From Candidatus Microgenomates bacterium (GTDB lineage: Bacteria > Patescibacteriota > Microgenomatia > UBA8517 > JACQJR01), in the NCBI GenBank assembly GCA_016204995.1, contig JACQJR010000001.1, forward strand, positions 369,132 through 433,131: 64,000 nucleotides of DNA, read 5' to 3'. This document shows, piece by piece, positions 7,441-64,000 of this stretch. Made by a program: the position numbers and the translations under genes. The notes beneath the pieces were generated by a model. It did no database searches, was not told where the DNA came from, and saw only the letters and a program-made list of their open reading frames with translations. Numbering within the stretch: the stretch's first letter is position 1; the number at the start of each line of letters is the position of its first letter.

Positions 7441-7493
7441 ATTTACTCCAATTCAAAGTGCAAAATGCAAAATTAAAAATTCCGATAGTAGAA

Positions 7494-7522: not shown

Positions 7523-7524
7523 AG

Positions 7525-12559: not shown

Positions 12560-12672
12560 AGCTCTCCCTTCGGTCGAGAATAATACCAATATTACAAATT
12601 TCAAATTTCAAATGTTTTATCATTGGTATTTATTGGTATTTATTTGATATTGGTACTTATTTTACCATGTTT

Positions 12673-16383: not shown

Positions 16384-16386
16384 ATT

Positions 16387-19300: not shown

Positions 19301-19770
19301 ATTTCCGCCCGATGCAAGAAACGTGCGCTGACTGGATCCTGATCTCGGGAAAAATAAACTCCGGGAGAACGGACAATTTGATTAACAACTACTCGCTCAA
19401 TGCCGTTAATAATAAACGTCCCCTTATCGGTCATTTGGGGAATATCGCCCAAAAAGACATCCTGGGTGGTGGATTTCTCGGTCTTTTTGTTGAAAAGTTT
19501 GGCTTCTACTTTAAGGGGAGAACTATAAGTGAGTCCTTTTTCTTGGGCTTTTAAGGGAGTAATAGTTGGTTTGCCCAAGTAATACTCGCCTAGGCTCAAG
19601 GCCCAATTTTTACCGGTAAAGTCTTCTACGGGGGAAATTTCAGAGAGAGCCTCGGCAATTCCTTCCGCCAAAAAGCGCTCCCACGATTCTTTTTGGACGG
19701 CTACCAAGTCTAAGGGCGGCAGTTTAAATTGCCCCTGTCTCTGCGCTAGTATTTGACGCTTTGACGGCAT
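16387..19770 (-). CDS. rpoB: DNA-directed RNA polymerase subunit beta (start probably the internal Met MPSKRQ at 19770, since a terminator-like leader hairpin lies at 19790-19816)
   Basis: about 1127 aa; rpoB-typical motifs; immediately upstream of rpoC. Confidence 0.95.
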   Translation of the reverse strand: MPSKRQILAQRQGQFKLPPLDLVAVQKESWERFLAEGIAEALSEISPVEDFTGKNWALSLGEYYLGKPTITPLKAQEKGLTYSSPLKVEAKLFNKKTEKSTTQDVFLGDIPQMTDKGTFIINGIERVVVNQIVRSPGVYFSRDQDPVSARFLHRAEIRPVRGSWLEFEVGKNDVIMARIDRRRRIMVTILLRALGIATEAEILNLFADIDRDDKHRYIQATLDKDNTKSADEALLEIYRRMRPGEPVVLDTAKNFFTNLFFSYRRYDLSKVGRYKINKRLGLGLENVKENWILQKEDIVGTIRYLIGLQNNEGRIDDIDHLANRRVRRVGELVATYGFRMGLLRLERSVKEKMSLTSTDDLVAPSFFVNARPVIASLNEFFRSNPQSSILDQTNPLSEIDNLRRLTVTGPGGISRERASFPIRDINSSQYGRIDPIRSPEGPNIGLVTYMALYTRVNEYGFLEAPYRRVVKDKIRGEIRPRVTDEIVYLSADDEEEYHLTHAGVLVSESGLIEDDWVPMRYQGQFLEGPAELIDFMDMTPGQVVGTSASLIPFLAHDEANRALMGTHMQCQAVPLIKPAAAIVGTGMEEMVARSQNWVILAQNAGRVSYVDAQRIEIQLEEKVKEKITSDHLEIDEKREIHYLTVFKRTSQSTCYHQKPRVSVGDQVKRGDFLADGPATDNGEIALGQNMLIAYCSFEGLGYEDALVVSDRLVKEDVLTSIHIEEYEAEVVETKLGPEELTKDIPNVPETDLGLMDEDGIVVVGSEVGPNDILVGKIQPKGETELTSEERLLRAIFGEKAREVRDTSLRMPHGERGIVIGVSILDREKGDELEPGTLKKVVVRVAQIRKVTAGDKLAGRHGNKGVISKIVPAADMPYLPDGTPIDIIISPLSVLARMNLGQLLEAHLGWALDKKGEHGGIPVFEKVPFELISEKLKEARLPVSGKTRLINGKTGEPFEQETMVGVAYIMKLIHMVEDKMHARSTGPYSLVTQQPLGGKAQMGGQRLGEMEVWALEAHRAGHTLQEMLTIKSDDVVGRARAFEAIVKGTDIPESTIPDSFKVLMRELNALNLSVEPKGAVIATQTEPESGETTARAARELAEAAGASLEAEEGELTAAESPMEVEIKS

Positions 19771-19789
19771 CGGGATTTTTCTTTGTATA

Positions 19790-19816
19790 CGCAAAAAGTC
19801 CCGTTTCTCACGGGAC
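19790..19816 (-). terminator. terminator-like hairpin plus U-run in the rpoB leader (putative attenuator)
   Basis: minus strand GTCCCGTGAGAAACGGGAC followed by TTTTTG, about 20 nt before the MPSKRQ start. Confidence 0.45.
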
Positions 19817-19852
19817 AAAATAATTTTGCGTACCTGACTACGCCTGGAATTG

Positions 19853-24443: not shown

Positions 24444-24819
24444 GTGTCTCTAGATATGATTGTAGCATAACGGCGGCGGCAAATGCATCTTCCATGCTTT
24501 TTCGCCTGACCCTGGCCATGCCAGAAGCAATAGCTAACTTTTGAGCATCGTAAGTGGTTAAGGTTTCATCCCACAAAATCACCTTTATGCCTTGATGTTT
24601 TAGTTTATCAGCTACCTGTTTTATTATCTTTTCCATCTCTCCGCTTGGCAGGCCGATTACCACCTCCAATGCTTGTTCTCTTCTGGTTAAATCCGTGATT
24701 TTTTGGATCAATTTAGCTAAATTACTTTCTTTGATCACCACCAGCGGCTCGGCCAAAATTCCTACGCCCCGGGCCACTCCGGTTTTAATTTTGCCAATAT
24801 CTAATCCCAGTCTAATCAT
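24433..24819 (-). CDS. ruvX: RuvX/YqgF-family Holliday-junction resolvase-like pre-16S rRNA nuclease
   Basis: 128 aa; MIRLGLDIGKIKTGVARGVGILAEPLVVIK... RNase H-fold YqgF signature. Confidence 0.8.
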   Translation of the reverse strand: MIRLGLDIGKIKTGVARGVGILAEPLVVIKESNLAKLIQKITDLTRREQALEVVIGLPSGEMEKIIKQVADKLKHQGIKVILWDETLTTYDAQKLAIASGMARVRRKSMEDAFAAAVMLQSYLETHGD

Positions 24820-25505
24820 ATACTTGCCCCCGACTGCATCGGGGCTAACTCCGCTTTCACTATTAGCCGCCGCAAATAAGTTCCCGGCGGCACGCAGGTA
24901 ATTAAAGTCAGGTGGGGTTTATCGTTAGGTTGGGCCAGCACCGAGATTTCGGTCGGCGCCACCTCAAACATCTCTGAAATGACAAAACGATAAGTGATGC
25001 CATCATAGCTAACTATTATTTCATCTCCTTTCGCCAAAGTTGGCAGGGTAGAAAAAATAGATAAATAATTGGTAGGGCTAAAAAACTGCGGCAAAGTAGA
25101 ATGGCCAAAAATGACAGCATTACCCACTCGGCCTGGTATGGCCGTCCCCTTATAATGAATTAAATTTTTACTTAAGTCTTCGCCGGCAATTTCCACTGTC
25201 GCCTGGCTAATTTTTAATTTAGGAATTGATAAAGTATAGTATTTAATTTGAGAATTAGCTTCTGGCCGGTCGGGGAAATCCAAGCTGCCTACAAACCAAT
25301 TGGAAGCCCGAGTTAAATCTACGGGGCTATATTTTTGGCTATTGCTGTCTCCTACCGGAGATAAAAATTTAGAATCACTATCGCCCCGACTAAAGTTAGG
25401 GGCAGTAAACAATTCGTATGAAATAATAGGGAAAACGGCGCTGGTTAACACCAAGCCTCCCCCGATAATTAAAAAAATAGCCAATAACCGAAGCCAAAAC
25501 ATCAT
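24816..25505 (-). CDS. sortase-family transpeptidase
   Basis: 229 aa; N-terminal TM anchor; catalytic His (VIFGHS), TLITC cysteine motif, downstream Arg (RRLIV). Confidence 0.75.
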   Translation of the reverse strand: MMFWLRLLAIFLIIGGGLVLTSAVFPIISYELFTAPNFSRGDSDSKFLSPVGDSNSQKYSPVDLTRASNWFVGSLDFPDRPEANSQIKYYTLSIPKLKISQATVEIAGEDLSKNLIHYKGTAIPGRVGNAVIFGHSTLPQFFSPTNYLSIFSTLPTLAKGDEIIVSYDGITYRFVISEMFEVAPTEISVLAQPNDKPHLTLITCVPPGTYLRRLIVKAELAPMQSGASI

Positions 25506-27715
25506 TGTTCGGCAACCACCTTAATGGTAATGTTGTCGCTTTTTTGAGGCAGAAAATCGGACAGAAATGGCAAACGGGGAGAAAATTTAATGGAAGTACG
25601 AGAATAGCCTGGTAAAGCAGCCAGTTTTGTCTTAACCTCCGATTGGCTTTTACCAGCCAGTTGCGAAACCAGCTGTCTTTGATTAATCTGCGGCAGTAAA
25701 TTAGCTTGCGCTGTCACATTAATAGTCAGCACCTTATTTTTTTCTTTTTTCTCACCTGTCTGGCTAATGGAACTAAAACTAGCTGCTATATCACCCTCTT
25801 CTAAATTAAACTTCTCTGGCACTTTGGGACGCAAAACAGTTAATAGCTGGCTGTTTAACTGATCATGCGGTATGGTTACTGCTATTCCTTCCGCTTCTAG
25901 GTTTAACTTCAAGGTTTGTGCTTCCTCACCGACATTATGAGAAAATGAACGTCGCACAATGTTCATTTGGATTGATTCATTAATGACTGTTTCATCGCCA
26001 CTAACCTTCTGTCTAATATCTGTCTTAAATTTGTCGGTCAGTTCTGCCAACAGGTCTGTTTCCAGTTTTTGTCTATCTTCTTTGGCCACAGCCGGTACTT
26101 CTCGCGAGCTGCCGCCGGTAAAAACATTATCGTTTTTGGCAGCAAAACTATTGGTGGAAAAATTAGTGATCGCAAAACTATTGCCAGAGGCTAAATTGTA
26201 TTGGGTACCAATATCAGCCGCACTAATTACGGCTTTGGCTTGGCCTAGCACAATGTTGGGCAAAATGCCAGAGGCGGAGGCCACCGTCACCTGACTATCA
26301 AGACTGAACTTTAAACCGTTAGGACCAACTAAAATGGTATGAGCGGGAAAAGTTTTGGGCTGGGCGGTGTTATTGAAAATTATGACCTCTCCTTTGGCCC
26401 GATCTCCCACAGTTTTAGAACCGGTAGTGGAAGTAGTCTTTTCACCTTCCACGGTAGAAGAAATGGTCCGGCCGGCCACAATACCATCTCCGCTCCCACC
26501 AGTGGGATCAACCTGCAAAGTCAATTTTTCCTCAATTTTTTTAGGAGCAATATAAATAGTGAGCTGGGCCTTGGGTACAAAATACCACACTAAAGTAAAA
26601 ACTAAAATCGTTAATCCCCCTAAAATTAACCATATCTTCAACTTGCCTAAAAACCCACTTTTAGCAGAAACCGCATTAAAGAGGGAATTTAGTTTGGAAC
26701 CGGTCTCCGATCCTGATTTAATCGGGGCAGGCCCGCCTGCACCAACAGGCCTGTCTGCGCCAGCAGGCTCCACCACTTCCTCGTGGGTTTCCTGGAAACC
26801 GAAATCTTCTACTGGTGGTGTGACAGCAACTGGCAATTGCGGCTCTGGAGTCACTGAAGAAACCTTTTCCGTAGCAATTTCTTCCTCTACTACTGGTCTC
26901 CGGCCCTGGAAGGTCTCTGGCTCCGATTTAAGCGGGGCTGGTTCTGTCGCAGTGGTTAATTCCGGTTGAACCGGGGCTTCAGTGGAAGCAGCGACTGAAA
27001 TAGCGGATAATAACTCGTCCGATGTCAATCTTTCAATCCTGGGAGTATGCAGGAAAAAGGCCGAAGGCCATTCCCAGTTAACTAAATTTTGCCGTGCCTC
27101 CTCCAACTCGTTATTATTTCTGTTGTATAAAACTAACCGCGCAGGCAGTGATTCTCCGACGCCAAAACGGGATAAGCCCTCGGTAATATCATCTGCCAGC
27201 GATATACTGCGGCTGACCAGATGGGAATTAACAATTTTACCCGATCTAACCAATAACACTTCCGCTTCCTCTTCTTCAATACCAACTAAAATGGCCGAAA
27301 GGGGTGAGCCTTCTTTGTTTTTCAAAAAATGAATAATCGCTTCCGGTACTACCACAAAGCCTTTAGGTTTAAGTTCTAATTTTTCGCACAAGAGACGCAG
27401 GTGGGCCAGTTTTTCAGGAACAATATTACCATCTTCTATCCAGAAATTAGGCAAGCCAAAAACTACTGATAAAATTTCCTCCGGCGGCTCATTCATACTA
27501 CCTACTGCGGCTGATAAACTGTCATCAGCCGCCTGGACAAAAGATTCACTGTCCTGCCAAGCATCAGTCGTGCCGGCTGCCATTAATTCACCCTGACCGG
27601 ATAGAGTACGCCACAAACCGGCCTGAATCCAATTTTTACCAATCACAAAGGAAACAAATACTTCTTGCGGAGTTTCTTTTTTACCAATAATTTCCGTAAT
27701 GCTGGGCAATTTCAT
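25502..27715 (-). CDS. bitopic membrane protein: N-terminal cytoplasmic FtsA/PilM-like actin-fold domain, Pro-rich linker carrying repeat-element insertions, TM helix, large extracytoplasmic domain
   Basis: 737 aa; N-terminal region resembles PilM/FtsA subdomains (VFVSFVIGKNWIQAG..., AILVGIEEEEAEVLLVRSGKIV); TM KIWLILGGLTILVFTLVWYFV; the linker contains PAGADRPVGAG and PIKSG encoded by the palindromic elements. Confidence 0.5.
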   Translation of the reverse strand: MKLPSITEIIGKKETPQEVFVSFVIGKNWIQAGLWRTLSGQGELMAAGTTDAWQDSESFVQAADDSLSAAVGSMNEPPEEILSVVFGLPNFWIEDGNIVPEKLAHLRLLCEKLELKPKGFVVVPEAIIHFLKNKEGSPLSAILVGIEEEEAEVLLVRSGKIVNSHLVSRSISLADDITEGLSRFGVGESLPARLVLYNRNNNELEEARQNLVNWEWPSAFFLHTPRIERLTSDELLSAISVAASTEAPVQPELTTATEPAPLKSEPETFQGRRPVVEEEIATEKVSSVTPEPQLPVAVTPPVEDFGFQETHEEVVEPAGADRPVGAGGPAPIKSGSETGSKLNSLFNAVSAKSGFLGKLKIWLILGGLTILVFTLVWYFVPKAQLTIYIAPKKIEEKLTLQVDPTGGSGDGIVAGRTISSTVEGEKTTSTTGSKTVGDRAKGEVIIFNNTAQPKTFPAHTILVGPNGLKFSLDSQVTVASASGILPNIVLGQAKAVISAADIGTQYNLASGNSFAITNFSTNSFAAKNDNVFTGGSSREVPAVAKEDRQKLETDLLAELTDKFKTDIRQKVSGDETVINESIQMNIVRRSFSHNVGEEAQTLKLNLEAEGIAVTIPHDQLNSQLLTVLRPKVPEKFNLEEGDIAASFSSISQTGEKKEKNKVLTINVTAQANLLPQINQRQLVSQLAGKSQSEVKTKLAALPGYSRTSIKFSPRLPFLSDFLPQKSDNITIKVVAEQ
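26741..26781. repeat. degenerate copy of the 36-bp element in the linker of the 737-aa membrane protein gene
   Basis: GCAGGCCCGCCTGCACCAACAGGCCTGTCTGCGCCAGCAGGC shares TGTCTGCGCCAGCAGGC with the element; encodes EPAGADRPVGAG in the same relative frame. Confidence 0.6.
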
Positions 27716-52849: not shown

Positions 52850-53158
52850 ATGCCACAGACAAAATCGGCAAAACGGGCTTTAAGAGCCAGCAAGGACCGG
52901 AGATTAAGAAATGCCAAAATTTCTGCCGGTTATAAAAAGGCCATTAAGCTGGCACGCGCCAAAAATACTCCCAGCCTAATAAGCACTGCATATCAAACAT
53001 TGGATATGGCAGCTAAAATTGGCGTTATTCATTGGAAAAAAGCGGCCCGCCTAAAAAGCCAATTAGCCAAAGCTGGACAAAAGACTCCAAGTTCCACCAC
53101 TCAACCAAAAGTCAAGAAATCTTCTAAGAATGTAAGTTTGAAAAGTATTTTTAACTAA
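52850..53158 (+). CDS. rpsT: 30S ribosomal protein S20; the last 9 codons are supplied by the 94-bp repeat element
   Basis: MPQTKSAKRALRASKDRRLRNAKISAGYKKAIK... S20 signature; C-terminus ...NVSLKSIFN encoded by the repeat starting at 53131. Confidence 0.8.
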   Translation: MPQTKSAKRALRASKDRRLRNAKISAGYKKAIKLARAKNTPSLISTAYQTLDMAAKIGVIHWKKAARLKSQLAKAGQKTPSSTTQPKVKKSSKNVSLKSIFN

Positions 53159-53395: not shown

Positions 53396-53470
53396 TGGAG
53401 CGGGAGACGGGACTCGAACCCGCGACAGCCTGCTTGGAAGGCAGTCTGTTACGGCCTAGCTAGTCTCCGC
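53396..53470 (-). tRNA. tRNA-Gly(UCC)-like element with non-canonical 5' half (pseudo-tRNA or integration-site remnant)
   Basis: minus-strand reading gives anticodon arm CTGC-CTTCCAA-GCAG (anticodon UCC), T-arm GCGGG-TTCGAGT-CCCGT and 3' end CTCCCGC-T-CCA (Gly-like C70/G71/C72 and U73). The 5' strand GCGGAGA mispairs and there is no canonical D-arm. Confidence 0.3.
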
Positions 53471-53990
53471 ACGGTCCTGGGGAGGAGGGTCCAGGCAGAC
53501 GGTCACCGACCATGTCCACTGGACACTAACAATATGCACTATTGGGCTGAATCTGGCAAGGCTCTGCAAGGCATTCGGTAATTATTGACGGCAAGCTACT
53601 ACCTGCCTGACGCGACTCTCTCGCGTCAGGCCGAACAACCAGTTATGCCTGTTCTTAGGAAACGGATCAGTTGTCAACCCCCCAATTCAAGGTCAAGAAC
53701 GGCGGTATTCAGAATACCTGTCTTATAATGAGGTCGGCAGGCAGGGCCGCAAATCATGAGCAAGGAGGCAGAGCCACAGCTACATACATCATCAGAAGTA
53801 AGACCATCGAACCCCGCGGTCTCTAACATCCTGCGGGGCATACATCATAGCTTTCGAAGACCCAGGGCGTTAGAAGTCGCTCTATACTCTGTCCCGGTAC
53901 TTGCCGGAGCCGCAAATTGCTATTTGTCGAAACAATTGGCTTCCAGTGACCTAGCTGAGCGCAGAGCAGCGCTCGGTACCATGCTGATTG

Positions 53991-54653
53991 TCACTGGGGT
54001 ATGGGGCTTGGCTCTCCGTTTGAGGAATTTAAAGCCTTGAATAGGCAAACAAGTGCTTCAATAGCCACTGAAGTGAGTATACTACCCAGCAACACAATCG
54101 ATATCTCTCGAAAATCCGGCAGGGCAGGTGACCCAGAGAGCTGGGAGGAATCCCGAGTTATCTCTAGGAACAATAATGCGCCCGAAGTAACCGCTCCACC
54201 TATCCAAATAATCAAAATACTCGTATTAGCGCCAAGAATTACGCAGGCAACCCGGAAGACCCCCAAGACGGATAATGTAAGAAACGAAACCAAGATAGGA
54301 TTGTTGATGCCTGCGGGTGTTCCTGATCCCACTACGCTTCCTAACCCGAGGCTTGTCCACCCCAACATAATGTACACGAACCAAATCTCCGGGAACTTAG
54401 GGTGTCCCTTATCGCCATTCGAGCAGAACACAGGCAGAGCCCACCCGGAGAATCGATTTGGCCAAACCGCTGCTAGAGTTAACGCACCGATTCCGACCGC
54501 TAATGTTAAGTTGCCACTCCGCGCAATTACCTCAAGTAGCACTTCTCGCTCGCTGCATTCGTTTGTACCTCCGATCACGCCAAGGGCAGCGACGAGCAAC
54601 AACATGAGGGCAACACGGCAGATCTGCTGCCCACGTAAAAGAATACCTAGCAT
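53991..54653 (-). CDS. polytopic membrane protein, hypothetical (inside the GC-rich insert)
   Basis: 220 aa, 6 or more hydrophobic segments; the opposing plus-strand ORF 54001-54666 is Arg/Ser/Pro/Thr-rich and looks antisense. Confidence 0.4.
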   Translation of the reverse strand: MLGILLRGQQICRVALMLLLVAALGVIGGTNECSEREVLLEVIARSGNLTLAVGIGALTLAAVWPNRFSGWALPVFCSNGDKGHPKFPEIWFVYIMLGWTSLGLGSVVGSGTPAGINNPILVSFLTLSVLGVFRVACVILGANTSILIIWIGGAVTSGALLFLEITRDSSQLSGSPALPDFREISIVLLGSILTSVAIEALVCLFKALNSSNGEPSPIPQ

Positions 54654-54680
54654 GGCGTCCGTTTAGCTGTTCCTTCTAGG

Positions 54681-55484
54681 TCAAAATAGCTTCAGAGAAA
54701 CGAGGACATGTTGGAAAGCATCGATCATGCTGCCGTCTTCAGCTAAATCGGTACTTGAGACGCCAGTAAGATTGGCCGTCAATACCAAGAACCTCCCTGT
54801 CCTTGGGAACGCCGCGTGGACGCTCTTTCCTAGAGCACCAGCTGTGAAGAAGTGTCCAGTTACGCCGCTGACCGTAACCTCTTTGCGGTTGGCAACGGTG
54901 GGATCATCTTCTGCAGGCAGTGTATACGAATCAGTCAACACAGCTTCAATGCATTTTGGGCCACCTGGTATCTGATCGCGCAAATTGGTAGTTGGAGGGC
55001 AAAGTCTAAAACCCTTCTGGTTCGGCTGCTCGATAGCAACCTTAATCCAGTCTTTGGGGTACTCAATCGAATATCCGCCTTGGTTGTCCGTAAAAGAAGT
55101 CCATGTTGGTTCTGTGAGCGGTTCGGACGGCAAGCTATAAGCGATGTAGCCGCCAGAGGGGTCTCTAAACATCAGGGAATTGGCCGTATCTCCCTGCTGC
55201 TCGACATCTTCTGTGGAAACAGGCTTCCACCGGGCAGACGGTACGGGAGAAGGACTTGATGATACTCTTTGTCCATGATTTTGGATCATCGTTCTATCGA
55301 CCGCTCGCCACCTAACATAGTCGACGGTACCAATAAGGAGAAGTATGCCAACGACTAGCAAAGGAAGAAACGTGGGAGAATGGGCTACGACGCCGAACAC
55401 CTTTCTCATGTGGCTTGTTGGTATGTTTTCCGAACTTTCATCGGGCTTTAGTAGGTTATTGAGGCTGTCATCGGGTGGTTCCAT
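54681..55484 (-). CDS. membrane-anchored hypothetical protein (inside the GC-rich insert)
   Basis: 267 aa; one TM near residue 40 to 60; higher-GC codon usage than the host. Confidence 0.4.
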   Translation of the reverse strand: MEPPDDSLNNLLKPDESSENIPTSHMRKVFGVVAHSPTFLPLLVVGILLLIGTVDYVRWRAVDRTMIQNHGQRVSSSPSPVPSARWKPVSTEDVEQQGDTANSLMFRDPSGGYIAYSLPSEPLTEPTWTSFTDNQGGYSIEYPKDWIKVAIEQPNQKGFRLCPPTTNLRDQIPGGPKCIEAVLTDSYTLPAEDDPTVANRKEVTVSGVTGHFFTAGALGKSVHAAFPRTGRFLVLTANLTGVSSTDLAEDGSMIDAFQHVLVSLKLF

Positions 55485-55510
55485 AGAAAACGATATGAAT
55501 ACTCATAATA

Positions 55511-55876
55511 TCACATGCTTTCAACAGATCCCGGATGTTCCCTGGTCGGCAGTATCTTACCCAATTCGGCAGCGATGTCATTGGTAGTAATATTCAGTTC
55601 GTCGCCAAAGGCACCCACAGTTCTGGCTGCTCTCATAGCAGCCTGACGCGCCCCTGCATTGACAGCTCCGGCGATTTCGGCCGGTGATCGTCCTGCCGCA
55701 ATTTCTACTAGGCGCTCCAGATCGACCAGGTCTGCCCCCGGCTTGCCGCTAAGATGAATTTTCAAGACAAGGCGCCTAGCATCCGGATCAGGTAATCCTA
55801 CTTCGACCTTACTATCGAAGCGGCCCGCGCGGAGCAGTGCCTCATCCAAATCGGACGGACGGTTTGTCGCTGCGAG
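55511..55876 (-). pseudogene. 5'-truncated AAA+ ATPase gene (FtsH/CDC48-type C-terminal fragment) cut at the 94-bp repeat
   Basis: the reading frame runs ...[22 protein letters not shown]... (AAA second region of homology and sensor) with no upstream Walker A or B; the upstream end is replaced by repeat sequence at 55877. Confidence 0.6.
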
Positions 55877-55970
55877 TGTAAGTTTGAAAAGTATTTTTAA
55901 CTAACTTTAGGTTCAATTTTACAAATTTTGATAAATTTTCGAACCTAAATCATTTTTCAAACTTACACTC
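55877..55970. repeat. 94-bp repeat element copy 2 (direct orientation)
   Basis: perfect copy of 53131-53224; flanked on the left by the truncated AAA gene and on the right by the truncated istA. Confidence 0.9.
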
Positions 55971-56956
55971 ATAACGATTTCGCAAATTATAAGCGTAGTA
56001 AACATATCGAAACTGGCCCAGGCGAACAAGCACAAGTTGATTGGGCAAGTTTTGGTAAAATTGAAATTAACGGTAAAGTAAAAAAAGAGAGATTGTCCTG
56101 TTTTGTCTACGTTTTAAGTTATAGTCGGGCTTTATATATTGAATTTACTATTAAACAAAACCTTCAGACTTTAGAAGAATGTCATCTCCATGCCTTTGAA
56201 GAATTGGGTATACCTAAAACTATTGTTTATGACAATATGAAGACCGTAGTTTTAAAAAGAGAAAAATTACCTAAAGATAAATCAATAATACATTACAATC
56301 CAGCATTTGCTGATTTTGCCCAACACTATGATTTCCATCTATGGGCTTGTACGCCTCATTTACCTCGGGCTAAGGGAAAAGTAGAAAGAACAATTAGGTA
56401 TATAAGAAGTAATTTTATGCAAGGTATTAAAGTCAGACGGCAAGGGCTATCTCTGGAAGAGTTAAATAAAAAGGCATTAACGTGGTTAGAAAATGAAGCT
56501 AATGTCAGAATACATAAAGCTACTAATGAACGGCCACTGGATAGTTGGAAACGAGAAAAACCCTATCTACGATTTCCCAAAGATTATCATCCCTATACTA
56601 CCTCACCTTTCATAGTAAGATACAGCACTAAAGACGGAATGGTGCAATATAAATCAAACTTTTACTCCATACCAACAAAATTTTCTAGGAAAAAGCTCTT
56701 GGTAAGAGAAATAAACAAAAATGGCATGATTTTTCTAGAAATTTATCATGAAGATCAACTTATCACTGCTCATGGATTAAATAGAGATCGTGGACAATGG
56801 ATTACACAAGACCAACACCTTTTATCTGAAAACAAAACATCGCCTAAAAGAAAAATCAAGAAAAATTTATTTCACAAAGCAAAAATACAAAAAATAAAAG
56901 ATTTTACCAGAGGATTTGAGTACTACGAAAGGATAATTTCTACCTATAATGTCTAA
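55971..56956 (+). pseudogene. istA: IS21 transposase IstA, N-terminally truncated
   Basis: the open frame from 55971 reads ...KHIETGPGEQAQVDWASFGKIEINGKVKKERLSCFVYVLSYSRALY... (IS21 DDE region) with no start codon or HTH domain; the ORF track starts at a TTG at 56093. Confidence 0.75.
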
Positions 56957-57758
56957 GTCAAAATCTAATCAGTCTTATATTATTCCCGATGGTTTAAAGC
57001 AAAAGGAAAAAATAGATGTTGGGTTAAAGTTATTGAAGCTAGAAGGAATGAGATTTTCTTTTGATGCCTTAGCGCGGGACTATATTAAACAACAAAAAAC
57101 ATCTTATGATTTTTTGGAAAGCTTAACAGAGATTGAGTGTTCATGGAAACATGATAACAGAGTTGAATATTTAATTAAAAATGCCCGCTTTCCATTTATT
57201 AGAAGTATTTATGATTTTGATTTTGATTTTCAACCTAATATTAATAAACAACAAATAATGGAACTTGCTTCCTGCAGGTTTATTGAGCGGGGAGAAAATA
57301 TTATTTTTCTAGGTAAATCTGGAGTAGGTAAAACTCATTTAATTATTTCCTTGGGTATGGAGGCTATTGATAAATTATATTCTGTGCGTTATTTGCACAT
57401 CGGTGATCTAATTGAATCAATAAATAGAACTACAAATAACGGTGACGATTTATATAAACTTCTCAAGAATTTGCTACGCTTCAGATTACTTATTCTTGAC
57501 GAAATGAATCCTTATAACGTAAGTCCAGAATCAAGTAAGTTTTTATTCAAATTATTATGGGAACGTCACGAACAAAGACGTTCTACAATTTTTGCTTCTA
57601 ATCACGATCTTAAAGAGTGGGTTGTATTATTCGGGAGCAAAAATCGAGCCGAGGCAGTGATGGACCGTATTTTAACCCGCCAGATGTATGAAATTATTAC
57701 TATCGAAGGACCTTCTCACCGAGCCGAAAGAGGAGAAAATAGCCTAAAACTGCTTTAA
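56949..57758 (+). CDS. istB: IS21 helper ATPase IstB
   Basis: 269 aa; Walker A FLGKSGVGKTHL, Walker B LLILDEM; overlaps the istA stop. Confidence 0.8.
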   Translation: MSKSKSNQSYIIPDGLKQKEKIDVGLKLLKLEGMRFSFDALARDYIKQQKTSYDFLESLTEIECSWKHDNRVEYLIKNARFPFIRSIYDFDFDFQPNINKQQIMELASCRFIERGENIIFLGKSGVGKTHLIISLGMEAIDKLYSVRYLHIGDLIESINRTTNNGDDLYKLLKNLLRFRLLILDEMNPYNVSPESSKFLFKLLWERHEQRRSTIFASNHDLKEWVVLFGSKNRAEAVMDRILTRQMYEIITIEGPSHRAERGENSLKLL

Positions 57759-57767
57759 AGAAGTAAA

Positions 57768-58424
57768 TTATTCTAAAGATTTACCGCTAATTTCCTTTGC
57801 TTTCTGTCTGAAAAATGAACGCAACTCCTCCAAAGTTAATAGCTTAATCATCTCGGGCAGAAAATCAAAAGTTTCTACTTTTAACAAATCAGCTCCTACA
57901 ACAAAAGGATCCATTTTAACCTTAAATTTTACTCGTACTCCTTCTAATAAATCCCAAATAGTGAATTCTTTTAATAAGAAATAAAGATCAGCAAAATCTT
58001 TGACTTCAGTCCTTTGTTCTATTGCTAATAGTTTATTAATGGATATATCTAACAGTGAATCAATAGCCAGATTATCTACTATCTTACTCTTCTCTACTCG
58101 CTTATAAGGATAAAAGGCAAAATCAACTTTGACAGTCCGTTTGTCTGAAAAAATTAGGTTAAATATCTGGGTATTTTCTACTGCTAGATAATCAACTATA
58201 AAATGTAATTTTTTCTCCCAGAGAGTCATCTTGTCTAAGATAACTTGCGGATCAAATTTCTCTTGGCTGAAAAAATCAAGATCAATAGACTTACGATGTT
58301 GCAGATAATATAAACTTAAAGCTGTCCCGCCTGTAAAATAAAAAATGGAAGAAAGAAAGCGGTCTTTTCTAACTTCATCTAGTAACAATTCCTGCTCGGG
58401 GGTAATAATTCTTACTTGCCCCAT
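57768..58424 (-). CDS. AbiEii/AbiGii-family nucleotidyltransferase toxin (type IV toxin-antitoxin)
   Basis: 218 aa; FYFTGGTALSLYYLQHRKSIDLDFF matches the AbiEii NTase motif hGGTAL...R.S.DLD. Confidence 0.7.
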   Translation of the reverse strand: MGQVRIITPEQELLLDEVRKDRFLSSIFYFTGGTALSLYYLQHRKSIDLDFFSQEKFDPQVILDKMTLWEKKLHFIVDYLAVENTQIFNLIFSDKRTVKVDFAFYPYKRVEKSKIVDNLAIDSLLDISINKLLAIEQRTEVKDFADLYFLLKEFTIWDLLEGVRVKFKVKMDPFVVGADLLKVETFDFLPEMIKLLTLEELRSFFRQKAKEISGKSLE

Positions 58425-58606
58425 ATTAATAACTCTAGTAATCGTTTACGTGTGGGGAAAAGATGAAGATTTTTCCAGTTTTTTTTCACCTGGGATAAAT
58501 TAATTTTCTCCTTTCCGGGACCATAATTAATCATTCTTTCCAAAAGGAGAATTTTTCCTTTTTCGCTTTGCTCAAGTTTCTTTCTGTTATAATCCCACAG
58601 CCACAT
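58412..58606 (-). CDS. small ORF upstream of and overlapping AbiEii; possible minimal AbiEi-like antitoxin remnant
   Basis: 64 aa, basic; position and 13-nt overlap are consistent with an antitoxin partner, but it is much shorter than the roughly 200 aa of a canonical AbiEi. Confidence 0.25.
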   Translation of the reverse strand: MWLWDYNRKKLEQSEKGKILLLERMINYGPGKEKINLSQVKKNWKNLHLFPTRKRLLELLIWGK

Positions 58607-58800
58607 ATCTTTTTTTATTATACTACAAAATCTAATGTTGCAAAAAAATTTACCAAAACCGCTTCAAAGTAATCCTAGACAAACATAGTTTCACTTCATA
58701 TACTGCGTTTAGTAATTAGTAATGAGAGCTGAGAGGTTGGTAAAATAAAACATTCAACTACTAAACTCTAACCTCTAAACTACTAACTACTCATTGACCC

Positions 58801-59337
58801 ATGCCTGTCCGGAAAAAATCAATCAGCCTGCTACCACAAGATGAGTTTGCCGCCTCACCCTTAGGTAGAGTATTGACTTGGGCATTAGGCGCCGGCCGAG
58901 TTATCGTCATTATCACCGAACTGGCAGTCATTTTAGCTTTCCTTTCCCGCTTCTGGCTGGATCGCCGGCTGACTGACTTAAACGAACAAATTGACGCTAA
59001 ATCCCATCTGGTTGCCGCCAGCAGCAACTTTGAAAATCAATTTCGCAGTTTACAAAATCGTATCAATCTAGTAGCTCAAAAACAGAATAAAGACGATTTA
59101 TTTAAAATCGTAAACAATATTGTTACTCTGATTCCCCCAGAAGTAAAACTAACTCAACTTACCGTCAACCAAGAAGACATCCAAATTACCGGTTTAGGCC
59201 TGTCGGAAAACGGCATTGCCAGGTTTTTAAATAAACTAAACAATGCCAAGCTGGGAGAAGCCAAACTAACTCAATTAGCTACCGGCGAGCAGGAATCAGG
59301 CATTAAATTTAGTCTGGTGATTAATACTAAACATTAA
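58801..59337 (+). CDS. pilN: type IV pilus assembly protein PilN-like
   Basis: 178 aa; N-terminal ISLLPQDE motif (PilN INLLP signature), then a TM and periplasmic coiled coil. Confidence 0.6.
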   Translation: MPVRKKSISLLPQDEFAASPLGRVLTWALGAGRVIVIITELAVILAFLSRFWLDRRLTDLNEQIDAKSHLVAASSNFENQFRSLQNRINLVAQKQNKDDLFKIVNNIVTLIPPEVKLTQLTVNQEDIQITGLGLSENGIARFLNKLNNAKLGEAKLTQLATGEQESGIKFSLVINTKH

Positions 59338-59338
59338 C

Positions 59339-59950
59339 ATGCAAAAATCCTGGCGAGCGAGTTACCAAAGATATTTGAAGCTGTTAAGTTTAACCTGGCA
59401 AAAGCGACAAGATATCCGGGCTTATATTGGCATTTTGTTATCTTTATCTGCCATTTCCTTCTTTGGCGCTTTCGCTCTGCGCCCTACCCTAATTACTATT
59501 GGAGAGCTGGTTAGTCAAATTAAAACCCAAAAAGAAACTCTCGCCCAACTTGATCAAAAGGTCCAAAATCTGCAAACAGCCAGCACTAATTTTAATAAAG
59601 TCAAAAGCGATTTAGGTTTAGTTGATCAAGCCATGCCTGCCAGTCCTAAACCAGATGCCTTTTTGAGACAGATAGAGGCCTTAGCCGCCCAAGAAGGAGT
59701 GGCAGTGCAGGATACAAACATAGAAAAAATTATCCTTAAGGGAGAACAAAAATCAAATCCGCCTACTTTCAAAATAACTTTTACCACTGACGGAGAATAT
59801 ATTAATACCGTCTCTTTTTTGCATAAATTGGTGAGTCTTAGACGGGAACTAACGTGGGATTCGCTCACTTTAGGAGCCAAAGCCGGTGCTGACGAGGGTG
59901 GCAGACCAATTTCGCTGACTATTTCCGGCCAGTTAGTTTTTGTACCATGA
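59339..59950 (+). CDS. pilO: type IV pilus assembly protein PilO-like
   Basis: 203 aa; single TM then coiled coil LAQLDQKVQNLQTAS...; immediately after the pilN-like gene. Confidence 0.5.
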   Translation: MQKSWRASYQRYLKLLSLTWQKRQDIRAYIGILLSLSAISFFGAFALRPTLITIGELVSQIKTQKETLAQLDQKVQNLQTASTNFNKVKSDLGLVDQAMPASPKPDAFLRQIEALAAQEGVAVQDTNIEKIILKGEQKSNPPTFKITFTTDGEYINTVSFLHKLVSLRRELTWDSLTLGAKAGADEGGRPISLTISGQLVFVP

Positions 59951-60165
59951 AAAAAACATCTCAACCCAGAATTGTCACTTTTGCCTTGTTAACTACCATT
60001 ACTATGCTCACCTGGGTAACTTTTGAAGTCTGGCATTCTTTTAACAAACCAGCTCCAATCCAAGTGGAACAAAAGCTGCTGGCGCCTCTTAATCCTCAAT
60101 TAGATACTAAAACTATAGAAGAACTACGGGATAAATTATTTTTTGAAGGAGGAGTAAACCCATGA
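59947..60165 (+). CDS. small membrane protein in the pilus-like cluster
   Basis: 72 aa with one TM; translationally coupled to its neighbours by overlaps. Confidence 0.35.
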   Translation: MKKTSQPRIVTFALLTTITMLTWVTFEVWHSFNKPAPIQVEQKLLAPLNPQLDTKTIEELRDKLFFEGGVNP

Positions 60166-61580
60166 GGAAAGAACGGACTATTCCCACCGTCATTGGTCTA
60201 GTGTTACTGCTGGCCGGGGTAGGAATTTCCGTTCTGCTAGTTCAGCGCCAGCAGTTTTTTAAACTAACGGCGGCGCCGGAAATTACCCCCAAAGATGTCA
60301 GAATCACCAATGTAACTGATGGCGGCTTTACTGTTTCCTGGATGACAGACAAAGAAACCATCGGTTTTGTTTCCTTTGGCGATTCCACCTCATTGGGTCA
60401 GATAGCCCAAGATGATCAAGGGACCAAGAGTTCTCCCTTACACCATGTTACCATCTCCAATTTATCTACCAATACTCGCTACTTTTTCAAAATCGGCTCC
60501 GATCGCGACACCTTTGACCAGGATGGGAAGCCGTGGGAGCAAAAAACCGCGACACAACTTTCACCTCGGACAGCCGATGTCATCTCCGGTACTGTCAAAA
60601 ATAGCCAAGGCGCGCCGGCAAGCGACGCTTTAGTCTATGTCACCCTGCCGCAAGCCGCCCCTCTCTCTACCACCACCGATAGTTCCGGTAGTTTTTCTTT
60701 GTCACTGGCCCCTGCCCGCACCACCAATTTATCTTCCTATGTCACCTACGATAAAAATAATGCCCTCTTGTCTATTTTCGTCCAGGCAGGAAGCGGTCAA
60801 GTATCTTCGGCCCAAGTAGCAGCCGCTAGCGCTCACCCTGTCCCGCCTTTAATTTTGGGCCAGACTCATGATTTTCGTCGCTTAAGCCAGACTGGCGAAG
60901 CTACCTCTCCCGGCGCTGATTTAGCCTTACCATCGGCAGCGCCGACTGCTTCGCCCGAAAGCGCCAGCTCGGGTTTTAATTTAAACCCGATTGCTTCCAG
61001 CTCGCCCGCACCCTCGGTAGATAAACTAACTATTGATAATCCCAAAGAGGGAGAAAATATCAGCACTAAAACTCCGGAGTTTCGTGGTCAGGGTCCTAAA
61101 GGCGTTAAAGTTAACTTAACTCTTAACTCCACTACCCCCATCACCGGTACCGCCACAGTAGCCGCAAATGGCACTTGGACCTGGACGCCGCCCCAAACCT
61201 TAACTACCGGTAGTCACATCCTAATTGCCACTCTTACCGATAGCAAAGGTCAAAAACAAACCACTTCGCGCAATTTTAGCGTCTTAGCCAAAGCGGCTAA
61301 TTTACCAGCTTTTACCGCCACCGGTTCGGCTCAAGCCAGCCCCGGTCCAACCGGGGCCAGTCCCAGTGCCACGCCTCGCGTTACTGCTAGTCCTTCTGCT
61401 TCACCTCGAGCTAGTATTATACCCACTGTGGCCCCTCGCATCTCTATGCCTTCTACCGAATCTGGGGTACCCGTTTCTGGCGACTTGACAAATACTATTG
61501 CAGTTTTCATACTGGGTATAACCTCCATTTTTGGAGGGGCTCTCTTGTTCATAAAAACAAGAGGGAATAATTACCAATAA
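60162..61580 (+). CDS. cell-surface protein: N-terminal signal anchor, FN3-like domain, carboxypeptidase-regulatory-like domain, Thr/Ser/Pro-rich spacers, C-terminal TM plus basic tail (sortase-substrate-like architecture)
   Basis: 472 aa; VRITNVTDGGFTVSWMTDKETIGFVSFG (FN3/purple-acid-phosphatase N-terminal-like); ISGTVKNSQGAPASDALVYV (CarboxypepD_reg-like); C-terminus ...VPVSGDLTNTIAVFILGITSIFGGALLFIKTRGNNYQ. Confidence 0.55.
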   Translation: MRKERTIPTVIGLVLLLAGVGISVLLVQRQQFFKLTAAPEITPKDVRITNVTDGGFTVSWMTDKETIGFVSFGDSTSLGQIAQDDQGTKSSPLHHVTISNLSTNTRYFFKIGSDRDTFDQDGKPWEQKTATQLSPRTADVISGTVKNSQGAPASDALVYVTLPQAAPLSTTTDSSGSFSLSLAPARTTNLSSYVTYDKNNALLSIFVQAGSGQVSSAQVAAASAHPVPPLILGQTHDFRRLSQTGEATSPGADLALPSAAPTASPESASSGFNLNPIASSSPAPSVDKLTIDNPKEGENISTKTPEFRGQGPKGVKVNLTLNSTTPITGTATVAANGTWTWTPPQTLTTGSHILIATLTDSKGQKQTTSRNFSVLAKAANLPAFTATGSAQASPGPTGASPSATPRVTASPSASPRASIIPTVAPRISMPSTESGVPVSGDLTNTIAVFILGITSIFGGALLFIKTRGNNYQ

Positions 61581-61663
61581 TTACCAATATCCGATAATAC
61601 CAATGCATCAATCATTGGAAATTGGACATTTGAAATTGGTAGTATTGGTATTATTTTATTATT

Positions 61664-63382
61664 ATGCCCGACGAATCTGCCCAGAAGCCTGTTTCACCCG
61701 CTAGTCCTACAGTCGGACCGGCTACCCCGCCTCCTGTCCATGAACCCATCACTCCTAACTCTGAACCATCTATGCCGGAAGCAACCCACGATTTCCCGAC
61801 GATTCCCACTTCAGAACAAACTATTCCTACCATGCCGCCAACAGATCCCACTTCCCCTCCCTTCGGCTCCAGTTCGACTTCGCTCACTGCGGGCGCTCAG
61901 GGCCTGCGGCCTACTGCACAACCGGCACCAGCCGCTCCCAATTTTAGCCCGGGCGGCATCCCGCCTGTCATTACTCCACCCTCGCCCCGCCGGCCCAAAG
62001 CCAAAATTGTCGGAGCGATACTGGCTTTATTGATTTTAGTGGTGGGTATTCCGGTCGGAGTTTTTTTAGTCCAGCAAAATCAAGAAGTCCGCGAAAAAGC
62101 TTCTACTTGTCAAGATGATTGTAACAGCGCGCTCACTAGTTGTAATAATCAATGTAATCAAAATTTTGACAGCTGTACGGGCACTTGTGGGCCTGCAGAT
62201 GGCTCTACAGAATACGAAAGCTGCTATGGCGCTTGTCAAGGTGCACAAAACAGTTGCAATAGTGGGTGTGGTGGCGAATTTGATTTTTGTCTCACTTCTT
62301 GCGGCAGCACCACTTGTCCTGACGGCATTTGCAGCGATGAAGAATTTAATAATGGTTCCTGTGCTCAAGACTGCGGTTCGCCTGGATCAAACGTCTGCGG
62401 CGATGGAACCTGTAGCGATGAAGAATTTAATAACAACAATTGTCCTCAAGATTGTACGCCAACCGATGGGGACGGGGATGGTGGGGGTGGAGAAAGTAAC
62501 TATTGTATAGAAGCTGGGTATCATCAATGCACTCCTGGTAGCCCAGCCGGAACTTGTACCAATAATGGTCAAACCTGTACCTCTTATGAGCATTATGCCT
62601 GTAATTATGGAGGGCAGAATTACTGCGACGCACCGATTTGCGATACCAATTCTTGTGGTGGTGGAGATGACGGCGGAGGTGGTGGAGGCTGCCAATACAA
62701 TAACGCCTATGATGCCGGCTTATTAGCCGACAAACCAAATCCTAATGACCAATGCGGCACTCAAGATGGCATTTATTGTAACAATGGCAATACTAATTTC
62801 TGTTGTTACGGCGATGGAAATTGTTTTGCAGGCCAGCAAGGATCCTGTACTAATAACGGCAATGGCAGTATCACCACTACTCAATCTGCCCAAATTATTG
62901 AATTCTCGTGTCCCGGCCAGACTTCAGCGACGGGCAGCTGTTCGGAAAATCAAACCTCTAAAGGTAATCAACCGGCCGGCACTTACACCACGGGCGGCAG
63001 CGGCTGCGGCGGCTTCCAGATAGATGCAGTGGGTCTGTGCGGCAGCTATAAATTTGTTTCCTGCGGGGGCGGTGGCGAGCCAGAGGTTAACAATCAATGT
63101 TTGAACATTAAAGCTTATGATACTAATTGGAAACAGCTGTCAACCAGTGAACTGGCTCAACTTAAAGTGGGAGATCAAATTCGGGTGGCGGTTAACGGCA
63201 ATACTACTTCCGGGACGTTAAATAAAGCCAGATTTAGAATTAATAATAGTTCGTCCTGGCAAGAAACTACGGCTAAAAATCCCAACGGCGAATTCTATAT
63301 TTCCGTGACTATTTCTCAAGGACCACCTACTTGGAAATTTGATGCCCAATTACATCATCAAGAAAGTGATACTTGGTTCTAA
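61664..63382 (+). CDS. type II membrane protein with Pro-rich N-terminal cytoplasmic region, one TM, and a very cysteine-rich repeat ectodomain (about 70 Cys) ending in a beta-rich C-terminal domain
   Basis: 572 aa; TM IVGAILALLILVVGIPVGVFLV; repeated units CPDGICSDEEFNNGSCAQDCGSP and CGDGTCSDEEFNNNNCPQDCTPT plus many CxxxC pairs; Gly-rich spacers. Confidence 0.6.
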   Translation: MPDESAQKPVSPASPTVGPATPPPVHEPITPNSEPSMPEATHDFPTIPTSEQTIPTMPPTDPTSPPFGSSSTSLTAGAQGLRPTAQPAPAAPNFSPGGIPPVITPPSPRRPKAKIVGAILALLILVVGIPVGVFLVQQNQEVREKASTCQDDCNSALTSCNNQCNQNFDSCTGTCGPADGSTEYESCYGACQGAQNSCNSGCGGEFDFCLTSCGSTTCPDGICSDEEFNNGSCAQDCGSPGSNVCGDGTCSDEEFNNNNCPQDCTPTDGDGDGGGGESNYCIEAGYHQCTPGSPAGTCTNNGQTCTSYEHYACNYGGQNYCDAPICDTNSCGGGDDGGGGGGCQYNNAYDAGLLADKPNPNDQCGTQDGIYCNNGNTNFCCYGDGNCFAGQQGSCTNNGNGSITTTQSAQIIEFSCPGQTSATGSCSENQTSKGNQPAGTYTTGGSGCGGFQIDAVGLCGSYKFVSCGGGGEPEVNNQCLNIKAYDTNWKQLSTSELAQLKVGDQIRVAVNGNTTSGTLNKARFRINNSSSWQETTAKNPNGEFYISVTISQGPPTWKFDAQLHHQESDTWF

Positions 63383-63387
63383 AAAAT

Positions 63388-64000
63388 ATGTCTAATAGAA
63401 TTAACTTAAAAAGTATTTTAATTATTATTGCCACTGTCATATTGGCAGCCATTGCTGTTTTTACGGCCTGGCGGCTTTACCAATTAAGAAGCGAACCGGT
63501 CGCTCCCACTGCTCCTAAAAAAGCTCCGGCGGCAGAAAATAAAGCCTGTTCCGCTTTGACATTCACCATTGCTACGGCTACTGCTTCTCCCACCGCCACT
63601 CCTGTTCCCTGCACTGTTACCTGCGCCCAAGCTGATCTTAATAAAGATAATAAAGTTACTATTTTAGATTTGACTAAACTGGGCCAATGTACGGGCAAAA
63701 CTCCTACTGGAAACTGTGCCGGCACCGACTTAAATAAAGATAATGTTGTTGACCAAAAAGATGCTGACTGCGTCAAAACCGTCTGGCAGCAAACCTGCTC
63801 GGCAGCTACAGCTAGTCCGACTGCCTCGCCGACCAGTACGGCGACAGCCCGACCAACTGCCACCGCAACTGCTGCTCCTACCTCTTCTGCAGCACCAACT
63901 GCGACTTCTGCACCTGCCGCCACCGCTACGACTCGGGCGGGAACAGCCGCACCTACTGCAACTGCCGCTGCCCTACCAGTAGCCGGCATGTCCTGGCCGG
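63388..64000 (+). CDS. dockerin-repeat-containing membrane-anchored protein (partial; runs off the window end; not in the ORF track)
   Basis: my translation from the ATG at 63388 gives MSNRINLKSILIIIATVILAAIAVFTAW... then two dockerin-like Ca-binding repeats ADLNKDNKVTILDLTKL and DLNKDNVVDQKDADCV, followed by Thr/Ala/Pro-rich linker; no stop before 64000. Confidence 0.6.
   Translation, partial: MSNRINLKSILIIIATVILAAIAVFTAWRLYQLRSEPVAPTAPKKAPAAENKACSALTFTIATATASPTATPVPCTVTCAQADLNKDNKVTILDLTKLGQCTGKTPTGNCAGTDLNKDNVVDQKDADCVKTVWQQTCSAATASPTASPTSTATARPTATATAAPTSSAAPTATSAPAATATTRAGTAAPTATAAALPVAGMSWP

Follow-up and report, generated by a model that had tools for sequence, protein, structure and literature searches.

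The 64,000-nucleotide stretch of DNA analysed here (the window), from Candidatus Microgenomates bacterium contig JACQJR010000001.1, ends in a six-gene operon, g1 to g6, that opens with genes for PilN and PilO and occupies the same chromosomal position in relatives throughout the class. Its gene content and order identify it as a core, class-wide cell-envelope operon of Microgenomatia, a lineage of the Candidate Phyla Radiation (CPR; Patescibacteria), and we found no description of it in the literature. We propose, at a rough probability of 45%, that g3–g6 constitute an extracytoplasmic module, specific to this lineage, of the pilus machine to which PilN and PilO belong. In the list of open reading frames (ORFs), the genes are laid out as follows, with TM denoting transmembrane.

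58801..59337, plus strand: g1, PilN by family profile, 178 aa; cytoplasmic N-terminus KKSISLLPQDEF (INLLP type), one TM helix, external PilN domain
59339..59950, plus strand: g2, PilO by family profile (Pfam PF04350), 203 aa, bitopic membrane protein
59947..60165, plus strand: g3, 72 aa, small bitopic protein; N-terminal TM helix, external segment PLNPxLDTKTxE...LFF
60162..61580, plus strand: g4, 472 aa; N-terminal TM/signal segment, FN3-like domain, CarboxypepD_reg domain, PVPPLILGQTHDFR motif, linker, Big_13 domain
within 60162..61580, plus strand: C-terminal part of g4; Thr/Ser/Pro/Ala linker, VPVSG-DLTNT, TM helix, basic tail KTRGNNYQ
61664..63382, plus strand: g5, 572 aa, type II membrane protein rich in cysteine
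63388..64000, plus strand: g6, cut by the end of the window; full length 224 aa

The junctions are tight: a 1-base gap separates g1 from g2, 4-base overlaps join g2 to g3 and g3 to g4, and gaps of 84 and 5 bases precede g5 and g6, respectively. An earlier, sequence-only reading of the window had proposed six co-directional plus-strand genes with short or overlapping junctions, forming one operon of envelope or surface proteins; the coordinates confirm the former, and the tight packing, together with an order kept in dozens of species, supports the latter. Such retention of a six-gene order is not a product of chance. A promoter-like site (TAGACA, 17-base spacer, TATACT; 58676..58704, plus strand) was found by consensus scan about 100 bases upstream of g1; it agrees with the consensus at 10 of 12 hexamer positions and is a weak pattern match only.

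The extent of conservation was assessed by scanning a PilN alignment against one genome per GTDB species, which returned 156 relatives. Counts of loci given here refer to the best 80 of these, drawn from Woesebacteria, Blackburnbacteria, Shapirobacteria and other Microgenomates, with hidden Markov models (HMMs) built from the orthologues run on all of their ORFs. The order MurJ (minus strand), rpsT, g1–g6, an optional g7, and a PMT-type protein O-mannosyltransferase gene (PMT; minus strand) is found in nearly every locus long enough to display it and in loci L004–L009, and the same layout surrounds the g5 homologues P0002 and P0003 as well as three PilN homologues on long contigs. Upstream, the genes for IF-2, NusA, DnaJ, DnaK, GrpE, HrcA and MurJ all lie on the minus strand, followed by rpsT and the operon on the plus strand; downstream, almost all species have a PMT gene convergent with the operon, and LytR_CpsA_Psr and FemAB genes usually lie close by. 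The gene for PilO directly follows that for PilN in 79 of 80 loci, the exception being a contig that ends after g1, and g3 is found in most loci. This near-invariant order at a single chromosomal spot marks a core envelope operon rather than an accessory island. The sequence-only reading had envisaged a surface or attachment gene cluster; an accessory or mobile attachment island is ruled out by the fixed housekeeping neighbourhood in 80 species, and the comparison of gene order among relatives that the reading had suggested finds the order kept.

Several loci carry variations on this layout. A 93-aa protein with apparently two TM helices, g7, is encoded between g6 and the PMT gene in about a third of the relatives (e.g., L007 14982-15263, L008 15097-15378, and 13 or more other loci) and is absent from the window. 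A Woesebacteria chromosome (L056, OY970314.1) carries a tandem duplication of the g5–g6 pair, and several other loci have extra g5-like or anchor-only ORFs past g6. Public records for L012, L015, L016, L018 and many others are titled 'uncultured Gammaproteobacteria bacterium', and one 'Alphaproteobacteria'; they have the gene content and synteny of Microgenomates and look like submitter mislabels.

What identifies the first two proteins? The g1 product matches the Pfam PilN family (PF05137) with E = 1e-7 and 32.3 bits (cut-off 22.8), and g2, which starts 1 base past the g1 stop codon, matches PilO (PF04350) with E = 1.3e-7 and 32.3 bits (cut-off 22). Both exceed the gathering threshold, in agreement with their first description as PilN-like and PilO-like, and judged by these profiles the two are genuine PilN and PilO. 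The PilN family profile also recovers Myxococcus xanthus PilN (3jc8) at E = 1.5e-5, and the family comprises at least 1846 clusters at 90% identity. The N-terminus of g1 reads ISLLPQDEF, with a hydrophobic helix coming next; in an alignment of 31 homologues with the consensus I-x-LLPQEEF, LLP never varies and I, Q, E, E and F hardly do. Cytoplasmic PilM is the binding partner of the INLLP peptide of PilN in characterised systems, and g1 may bind a PilM protein likewise. Given its strict conservation, we argue that g1 still serves a type IV filament machine; to our knowledge, neither PilN nor PilO has a role outside such machines.

In g3, a conserved segment of about 45 residues follows the TM helix, with a Pro-rich tail added in relatives, and no Pfam or NCBIfam family matches it. 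Three Ig-type domains are observed in g4, each above its Pfam gathering score: Pur_ac_phosph_N, an FN3-type fold (9.8e-8), CarboxypepD_reg (5.9e-8) and Big_13 (1.9e-10). A PDB sequence search with g4 returned FN3 chains as its sole matches, and the PVPPLILGQTHDFR motif is conserved in orthologue alignments. The earlier description of g4 as a protein with a signal anchor, an FN3-type fold, a carboxypeptidase-regulatory-like domain, long linkers, and a C-terminal TM helix with KTRGNNYQ tail was largely accurate; it overlooked the Big_13 domain, and the fn3 model itself scores 20.2 bits, under its cut-off of 25.

The N-terminal anchor of g4 and the TM segment of g5 are homologous, an HMM of the latter matching residues 4-42 of g4 at E = 5.9e-9. 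The shared segment, IPTxIGxxLLxxGxxxGVxLVQxxQ..., spans 60162-60290 in g4 and 62006-62104 in g5; the same HMM matches further ORFs in related loci L010–L089 ('TMmotif-only'), and g6 has a related TM helix plus an RLYQLRQ motif. Possibly this anchor acts as a signal for export or sorting that is peculiar to the lineage.

Both g4 and g6 end in motifs reminiscent of sortase signals. A C-terminal [LVIT]-P-x-[TS]-G-x-L-T-P-T motif followed by a TM helix is observed in 47 of 73 g4 orthologues, 96% of these 47 with a Lys/Arg tail; in the window the motif is VPVSG, followed by the TM helix and KTRGNNYQ. The corresponding motif in g6, L-P-x-[AS]-G-x-x-W-P-T with a hydrophobic end, is observed in 57 of 63 orthologues and reads LPVAG in the window. 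A single gene in the window offers a candidate enzyme for these signals:

24816..25505, minus strand: sortase, 229 aa, outside the operon; overlaps the end of the gene for a 737-aa protein (the two together 24816-27715, minus strand)

The sortase matches its Pfam family at 5.1e-26 and the generic NCBIfam sortase model at 51.4 bits (cut-off 39.35), and no class-specific NCBIfam model passed. A sortase is near-ubiquitous in Microgenomates (PMC6744442). The adjoining 737-aa protein has no family match and no PDB sequence match. By eye, its N-terminal 250 residues resemble a degenerate actin/FtsA/PilM-type fold; after them come an acidic linker and a TM helix, and then a large external domain. The protein could bear on the missing PilM or on sortase targeting.

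The architecture of g5 is resolved by orthologue comparison and AlphaFold2 (AF2) prediction into five parts.

61664..62005, plus strand: cytoplasmic tail, residues 1-114; Pro/Thr-rich, disordered, MPDE/MPDQ start, IPPVITPP beside the membrane
62006..62104, plus strand: TM helix and juxtamembrane motif IVGAILALLILVVGIPVGVFLVQQNQEVREKAS; 64% identity to P0002 (BLASTP)
62108..62680, plus strand: variable Cys-rich region, approximately residues 149-340; CX3C-X6-CX3C helices, then two CxDGxCSDEEFNNxxCxQDC units
62681..63094, plus strand: semi-conserved beta-rich Cys region, approximately residues 340-477; strands predicted by AF2, with predicted local distance difference test (pLDDT) scores mostly 44-70
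63095..63379, plus strand: conserved C-terminal Ig-like beta-sandwich as predicted, residues 478-572; CLNIKAYDTNW...HH...W

The tail has a pLDDT below 50 for residues 14-112. A basic stretch, PRRPKAK, lies on the N-terminal side of the TM helix, and an IPPV(I/V)T motif precedes the helix; with these features the N-terminus of g5 should be cytoplasmic. Conservation then falls and rises along the ectodomain: compared with the orthologue in locus L004, identity is 0.23-0.40 in the residue blocks covering 161-320 and 0.53-0.68 in those covering 321-520, and the closest relative holds unrelated modules in the variable region. AF2 predicts helices at residues 115-165 and 184-201 and assigns low confidence to the rest of this region; in the full-length model the CxDGxCSDEEFNN units take no confident fold (pLDDT ~30-40). 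Residues 149-202 (62108-62270) contain the pattern CX3C-X6-CX3C-X6-CX3C, which recurs after 11 residues, on two predicted helices that extend the TM helix (pLDDT 60-80), and resemble disulfide-stapled helical hairpins of the CHCH type. Across 55 g5 orthologues, reading-frame length ranges from 186 to 689 aa (median 398; the shortest look like contig-cut fragments) and the number of cysteines from 1 to 48. For g5 itself the sequence-only reading had estimated about 70 cysteines, and we count 41; the repeat unit that it described exists in exactly two copies, at residues 218 and 245, and its impression that the protein belongs to no named family agrees with the lack of any Pfam or NCBIfam match.

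The last 95 residues of g5 are modelled as a beta-sandwich of eight short strands with a pLDDT of ~90-96, in line with the beta-rich C-terminal domain first suspected. This fold, which we treat as one of the results, is a generic Ig-like sandwich and not a cohesin, the fold for which the sequence-only reading had suggested a check. Foldseek returned no match at E <= 0.001, the best being CBM56 at 0.034. A PDB sequence search gave no credible full-domain match; one borderline match, to adiponectin (E = 2e-4), has no single stretch that passes alone. An exhaustive profile search with the domain recovered 1439 representatives at 50% identity. In the 150 of these that were listed, proteins of about 100-550 aa that include many contig-cut fragments, no more than a few residues separate the domain from the C-terminus.

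A related design is seen in g6. Logan contig L001 is identical to the end of the window and reaches 2 kb past it; it contains the complete g6 at 7448-8122 and, after it, the convergent PMT gene. The protein consists of an N-terminal TM helix, RLYQLRSEPVAP, a CSALTFTI strand, a Thr/Ala/Pro linker, a dockerin-like module, a second linker, LPVAG-MSWPA and a hydrophobic C-terminal helix, the full-length protein ending in LPVAG-MSWPAVVGGIAGVGILILGILLAF. Orthologues keep the N-terminus (TM helix, RLYQLRQxPVAP and a C-x-L-x-F-x-L strand) and have in the middle a Thr/Ala/Pro/Ser linker, mostly with 0-3 copies of an 8-Cys knot; their cysteine counts are mostly 1, 9, 17 or 25, with a minority that differ. 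The ends of both g5 and g6 are conserved and the Cys-rich middle is freely swapped, an exchange of modules that is evident directly from the comparison of relatives. The family appears to be poorly served by gene callers: on L001 an antisense low-complexity ORF rich in Ala, Val and Gly (7537-8076, or window 63477-64000 and beyond) was chosen over g6, and in L006 the g6 region (12169-12871) was left uncalled. Misannotation of the family's Thr/Ala/Pro-linker genes is probably frequent in public records.

The module that fills the exchangeable slot in the window is the following.

63631..63777, plus strand: dockerin-like module of g6, residues 82-130; Ca-binding loops DLNKDNKVTILD and DLNKDNVVDQKD, with cysteines flanking both sides

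Could this module dock onto g5? The two dockerin-type repeats noticed in g6 stand, the module matching Pfam Dockerin_1 (PF00404) at E = 2e-6 and 28.4 bits (cut-off 22.9) with two canonical D-x-N-x-D...D loops. On this ground, and because g5 and g6 are adjacent and co-conserved, one may picture the g6 dockerin binding a cohesin-like g5 domain in a cellulosome-style attachment complex, a picture that would apply to the window genome only. We consider it very improbable: the dockerin-like loop pair occurs in 0 of 63 g6 orthologues, in the nearest relative the unrelated 8-Cys knot occupies the slot, and no window protein scanned against Pfam matches the Cohesin family. As the function of the operon, the cohesin–dockerin assembly put forward in the sequence-only reading is largely refuted by the orthologue count and the predicted Ig-like tip of g5, and the dockerin module is peculiar to the window lineage. 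Like non-cellulosomal dockerins of PF00404, it exceeds the family threshold and has two Ca-binding loops; unlike them, it is braced by cysteines, sits in an exchangeable stalk slot, has no cohesin partner that we could find, and is not conserved in orthologues.

In conjunction, these observations lead us to the following model for the operon. PilN and PilO would act as bitopic membrane proteins that scaffold a type IV pilus (T4P) machine, encoded apart from its ATPases, platform protein, PilM and pilins, and would be co-translated with four lineage-specific extracytoplasmic proteins. These proteins, g3–g6, whose gene positions are those of PilP and PilQ in pilMNOPQ operons, would make up the outer section of the machine, spanning the wall, or else a scaffold that surrounds the machine. 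In this arrangement g3 would serve as a short membrane-anchored adaptor and g4 as a three-domain Ig-type rod, with its LPxTG-like signal allowing sortase to attach it to peptidoglycan. The g5 protein, TM-anchored and with a disordered cytoplasmic tail of 110 residues, would project an exchangeable disulfide-rich stalk with an Ig-like tip that possibly binds glycans, and g6 would be a second stalk-like protein, carrying an LPx[AS]G signal and displaying an exchangeable small module, the 8-Cys knot in most species and the dockerin-like Ca module here. The Thr/Ser/Pro/Ala linkers would probably carry O-linked mannose, added by the adjoining PMT. Translational coupling between PilO, g3 and g4 and the fixed order through g6 suggest a stoichiometric complex, and hence a physical association of g3–g6 with the pilus machine would be expected. 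In one complete Microgenomates genome the only T4P locus is listed with PilA, PilD, PilB, PilT, PilC and PilM and with neither PilN nor PilO (PMC7143001), which fits with these two being encoded elsewhere, and CPR bacteria are enriched in T4P components without PilQ (PMC6744442).

A number of observations weigh against this model. The setting expected for PilN, adjacent to pilM in a T4P cluster, is not what the window and the 80 loci present: T4P ATPase, PilC, PilM and prepilin are absent within 10 kb of PilN by Pfam and motif scans, and a motif scan found no prepilin signal of the G-F-T-L-I-E type in the window or the loci. The sequence-only reading had likewise listed no pilM, pilB, pilC or pilin gene in the window. 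With no T4P genes nearby, what ties the operon to a pilus machine is the homology of PilN and PilO together with the INLLP-type motif. In Pfam and NCBIfam, g3–g6 match no PilP, secretin, T4P or type II secretion system family, and no resemblance to PilP, PilQ or any other known pilus component could be detected in them, PDB sequence searches with g4 and the g5 tip included. Saccharibacteria hold PilM, PilN and PilO within T4P loci (PMC11623550), and a second pilMNO set may exist at a T4P locus here too, the scans having covered the window and the loci. Sortase processing is made uncertain by three features: the g6 signal lacks a basic tail (Lys or Arg in the last 10 residues in 0 of 57), Thr is no more frequent than Ser or Ala at the fourth motif position, and no NCBIfam LPXTG model is matched by the operon proteins. 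Finally, the neighbours MurJ, LytR_CpsA_Psr, FemAB and PMT are devoted to general wall biogenesis, so that the operon could serve the wall and not a pilus.

A search for a PilB/PilT-type Walker A motif in the window gave a sole match, which falls in FtsK.

In an alternative view, g4–g6 are pilus-independent adhesins or wall organisers, glycosylated and anchored by sortase or in the membrane, and the linkage to pilN and pilO reflects shared regulation or history. The wall-biogenesis neighbours agree with it, as do the LPxTG-like signals on g4 and g6, the weak resemblance of the g5 tip to carbohydrate-binding and Ig modules, and the swapping of exposed g5 and g6 modules between close relatives, as would be expected of adhesins or phage-exposed surfaces. 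We nevertheless regard it as somewhat unlikely, since the 4-base overlaps joining g2, g3 and g4 and an order from PilN to g6 fixed in about 80 species argue for a stoichiometric complex, and PilN and PilO would have to be credited with a role beyond the type IV filament machines to which, as noted above, they are confined as far as we know.

How does the operon compare with known systems? The PilN/PilO-led operon is a conserved, previously undescribed variant in the Microgenomatia envelope. One of its closest counterparts is pilMNOPQ of Pseudomonas, Myxococcus and Thermus, in which pilN and pilO are adjacent in the same order, the PilM-binding INLLP-type N-terminus is shared, and further envelope proteins are encoded at the pilP and pilQ positions. 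Unlike pilMNOPQ, it has no pilM upstream, rpsT taking that place in relatives; it contains neither PilP nor a secretin, because CPR bacteria have no outer membrane; its downstream genes encode unrelated Ig-type and Cys-rich proteins anchored in the membrane or wall; and it stands apart from ATPase, platform and pilin genes. With pilM, pilP and pilQ absent, an identity with the pilMNOPQ operon was rejected. The Saccharibacteria T4P loci (TM7x loci 1 and 2; PMC11623550) likewise provide PilM/PilN/PilO-type alignment proteins in a CPR lineage, those of TM7x belonging to pili required for episymbiosis. In TM7x, unlike here, PilM, PilN and PilO lie inside T4P loci with PilB, PilC and pilins, and no equivalents of g3–g6 are reported (PMC11623550); the PilN and PilO described here are detached from such loci and joined in an operon with four other proteins.

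Two further comparisons concern surface fibres. Like Gram-positive LPXTG proteins and pilins, g4 has tandem Ig-type domains, a [LVIT]Px[TS]G motif, a TM helix and a basic tail, and g6 has LPx[AS]G and a TM helix, with a sortase gene in the genome. Unlike them, the motifs are degenerate (VPVSG and LPVAG), g6 lacks the basic tail, the operon has no sortase, and neither a pilin motif nor an isopeptide domain was recognised. Pam pili (bioRxiv 10.64898/2026.03.03.709456) are a CPR-specific surface system with Ig-like domains, and Pam homologues are reported in Microgenomatia; they include PamR, an FnIII protein anchored by a TM segment at its C-terminus, as well as disulfides and post-translational modification (10.64898/2026.03.03.709456). 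Unlike the operon, the Pam system comprises the pilins PamA, PamB, PamE and PamT and the chaperones PamC and PamD, is encoded beside ATP synthase and CorB, and has no PilN or PilO. Its described content and context, set against the MurJ, rpsT and PMT surroundings here, rule out that the operon is a Pam pilus operon.

It is conceivable that paralogues of PilN and PilO support a separate filament or secretion apparatus, for example a sortase-assembled or donor-strand fibre of g4 and/or g6 that would be Pam-like in spirit. The Ig-type domains and sortase-like signal of g4 recall Gram-positive pilins, the conserved C-x-L-x-F-x-L motif near the N-terminus of g6 is beta-strand-like, and Pam pili offer a precedent in CPR for fibres other than T4P that involve an FnIII protein bearing a C-terminal TM helix (10.64898/2026.03.03.709456). 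We think this quite improbable, given that the operon contains no sortase, chaperone-like or usher-like gene (no PapD-like or chaperone-like family was matched in Pfam or NCBIfam), that the Pam operon differs in context and lacks PilN and PilO, that the eight short strands of the g5 tip, predicted with high confidence, leave no sign of a missing strand for a donor strand to fill, and that no PDB sequence match to any pilin was obtained.

Returning to the proposed extracytoplasmic module of the PilN/PilO machine, we may speculate on its form. One doubtful but specific version has g3–g6 as a glycosylated, membrane- and peptidoglycan-anchored collar, docked on PilN and PilO, that steers the pilus across the wall and surface layer and functionally replaces PilP and PilQ. 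Were this true, pressure from hosts or phages would drive diversification of the exposed g5 stalk and of the g6 knot or dockerin, and with the collar a wall-spanning T4P component would for the first time be described for CPR or for any monoderm-type envelope. The best-supported means for CPR bacteria to locate hosts, bind them and move on them are T4P (PMC9894109, PMC11623550), and the operon supplies four concrete, class-wide candidate partners of PilN and PilO. It also ties these candidates to sortase anchoring and protein O-mannosylation, both enriched in Microgenomates, and its exchangeable Cys-rich g5 and g6 modules may determine specificity for hosts or phages. Even without a link to pili, the operon defines large unnamed families, namely the g5 C-terminal domain and g3, g4 and g6.

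The window as a whole is otherwise typical of a housekeeping region. The g5 protein is 100% identical to NCBI protein HY404_02235 of Candidatus Microgenomates bacterium (CPR), and Pfam scans of the remaining window identified genes for ribosomal proteins, EF-Tu, EF-G, RNase J, PNPase, FtsK, IF-2, NusA, DnaJ, DnaK, GrpE, HrcA and MurJ. Two large ORFs at 12673-19818 (1236 and 1143 aa), outside the Pfam scans, are probably RpoB and RpoC, judged by size and position. Only the 5.3 kb immediately before the operon is an insertion, with IS21, AbiE and tRNA-Gly genes; about 5.6 kb between rpsT and g1 (53396-58700) is present in the window genome and not in relatives.

52850-53158: rpsT, upstream of the insertion
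53396-53470, minus strand: tRNA-Gly(tcc)
53991-54653 and 54681-55484, minus strand: two genes of no assigned function
55511-55849: truncated AAA ATPase C-terminus
56093-56956 and 56949-57758: IS21 element, istA fragment and istB, respectively
57768-58424: AbiEii toxin gene
58412-58606: small ORF, upstream of the AbiEii toxin gene, at the antitoxin position

Base composition shifts across this region, with GC content up at 0.495 over 54001-56000 and down at 0.325 over 56001-58000. A gene for a 23S rRNA-intervening-sequence protein (PF05635; 47431-47793, minus strand) is inserted between dnaJ and dnaK, and the same slot holds a short uncharacterised ORF in L007 and L009.

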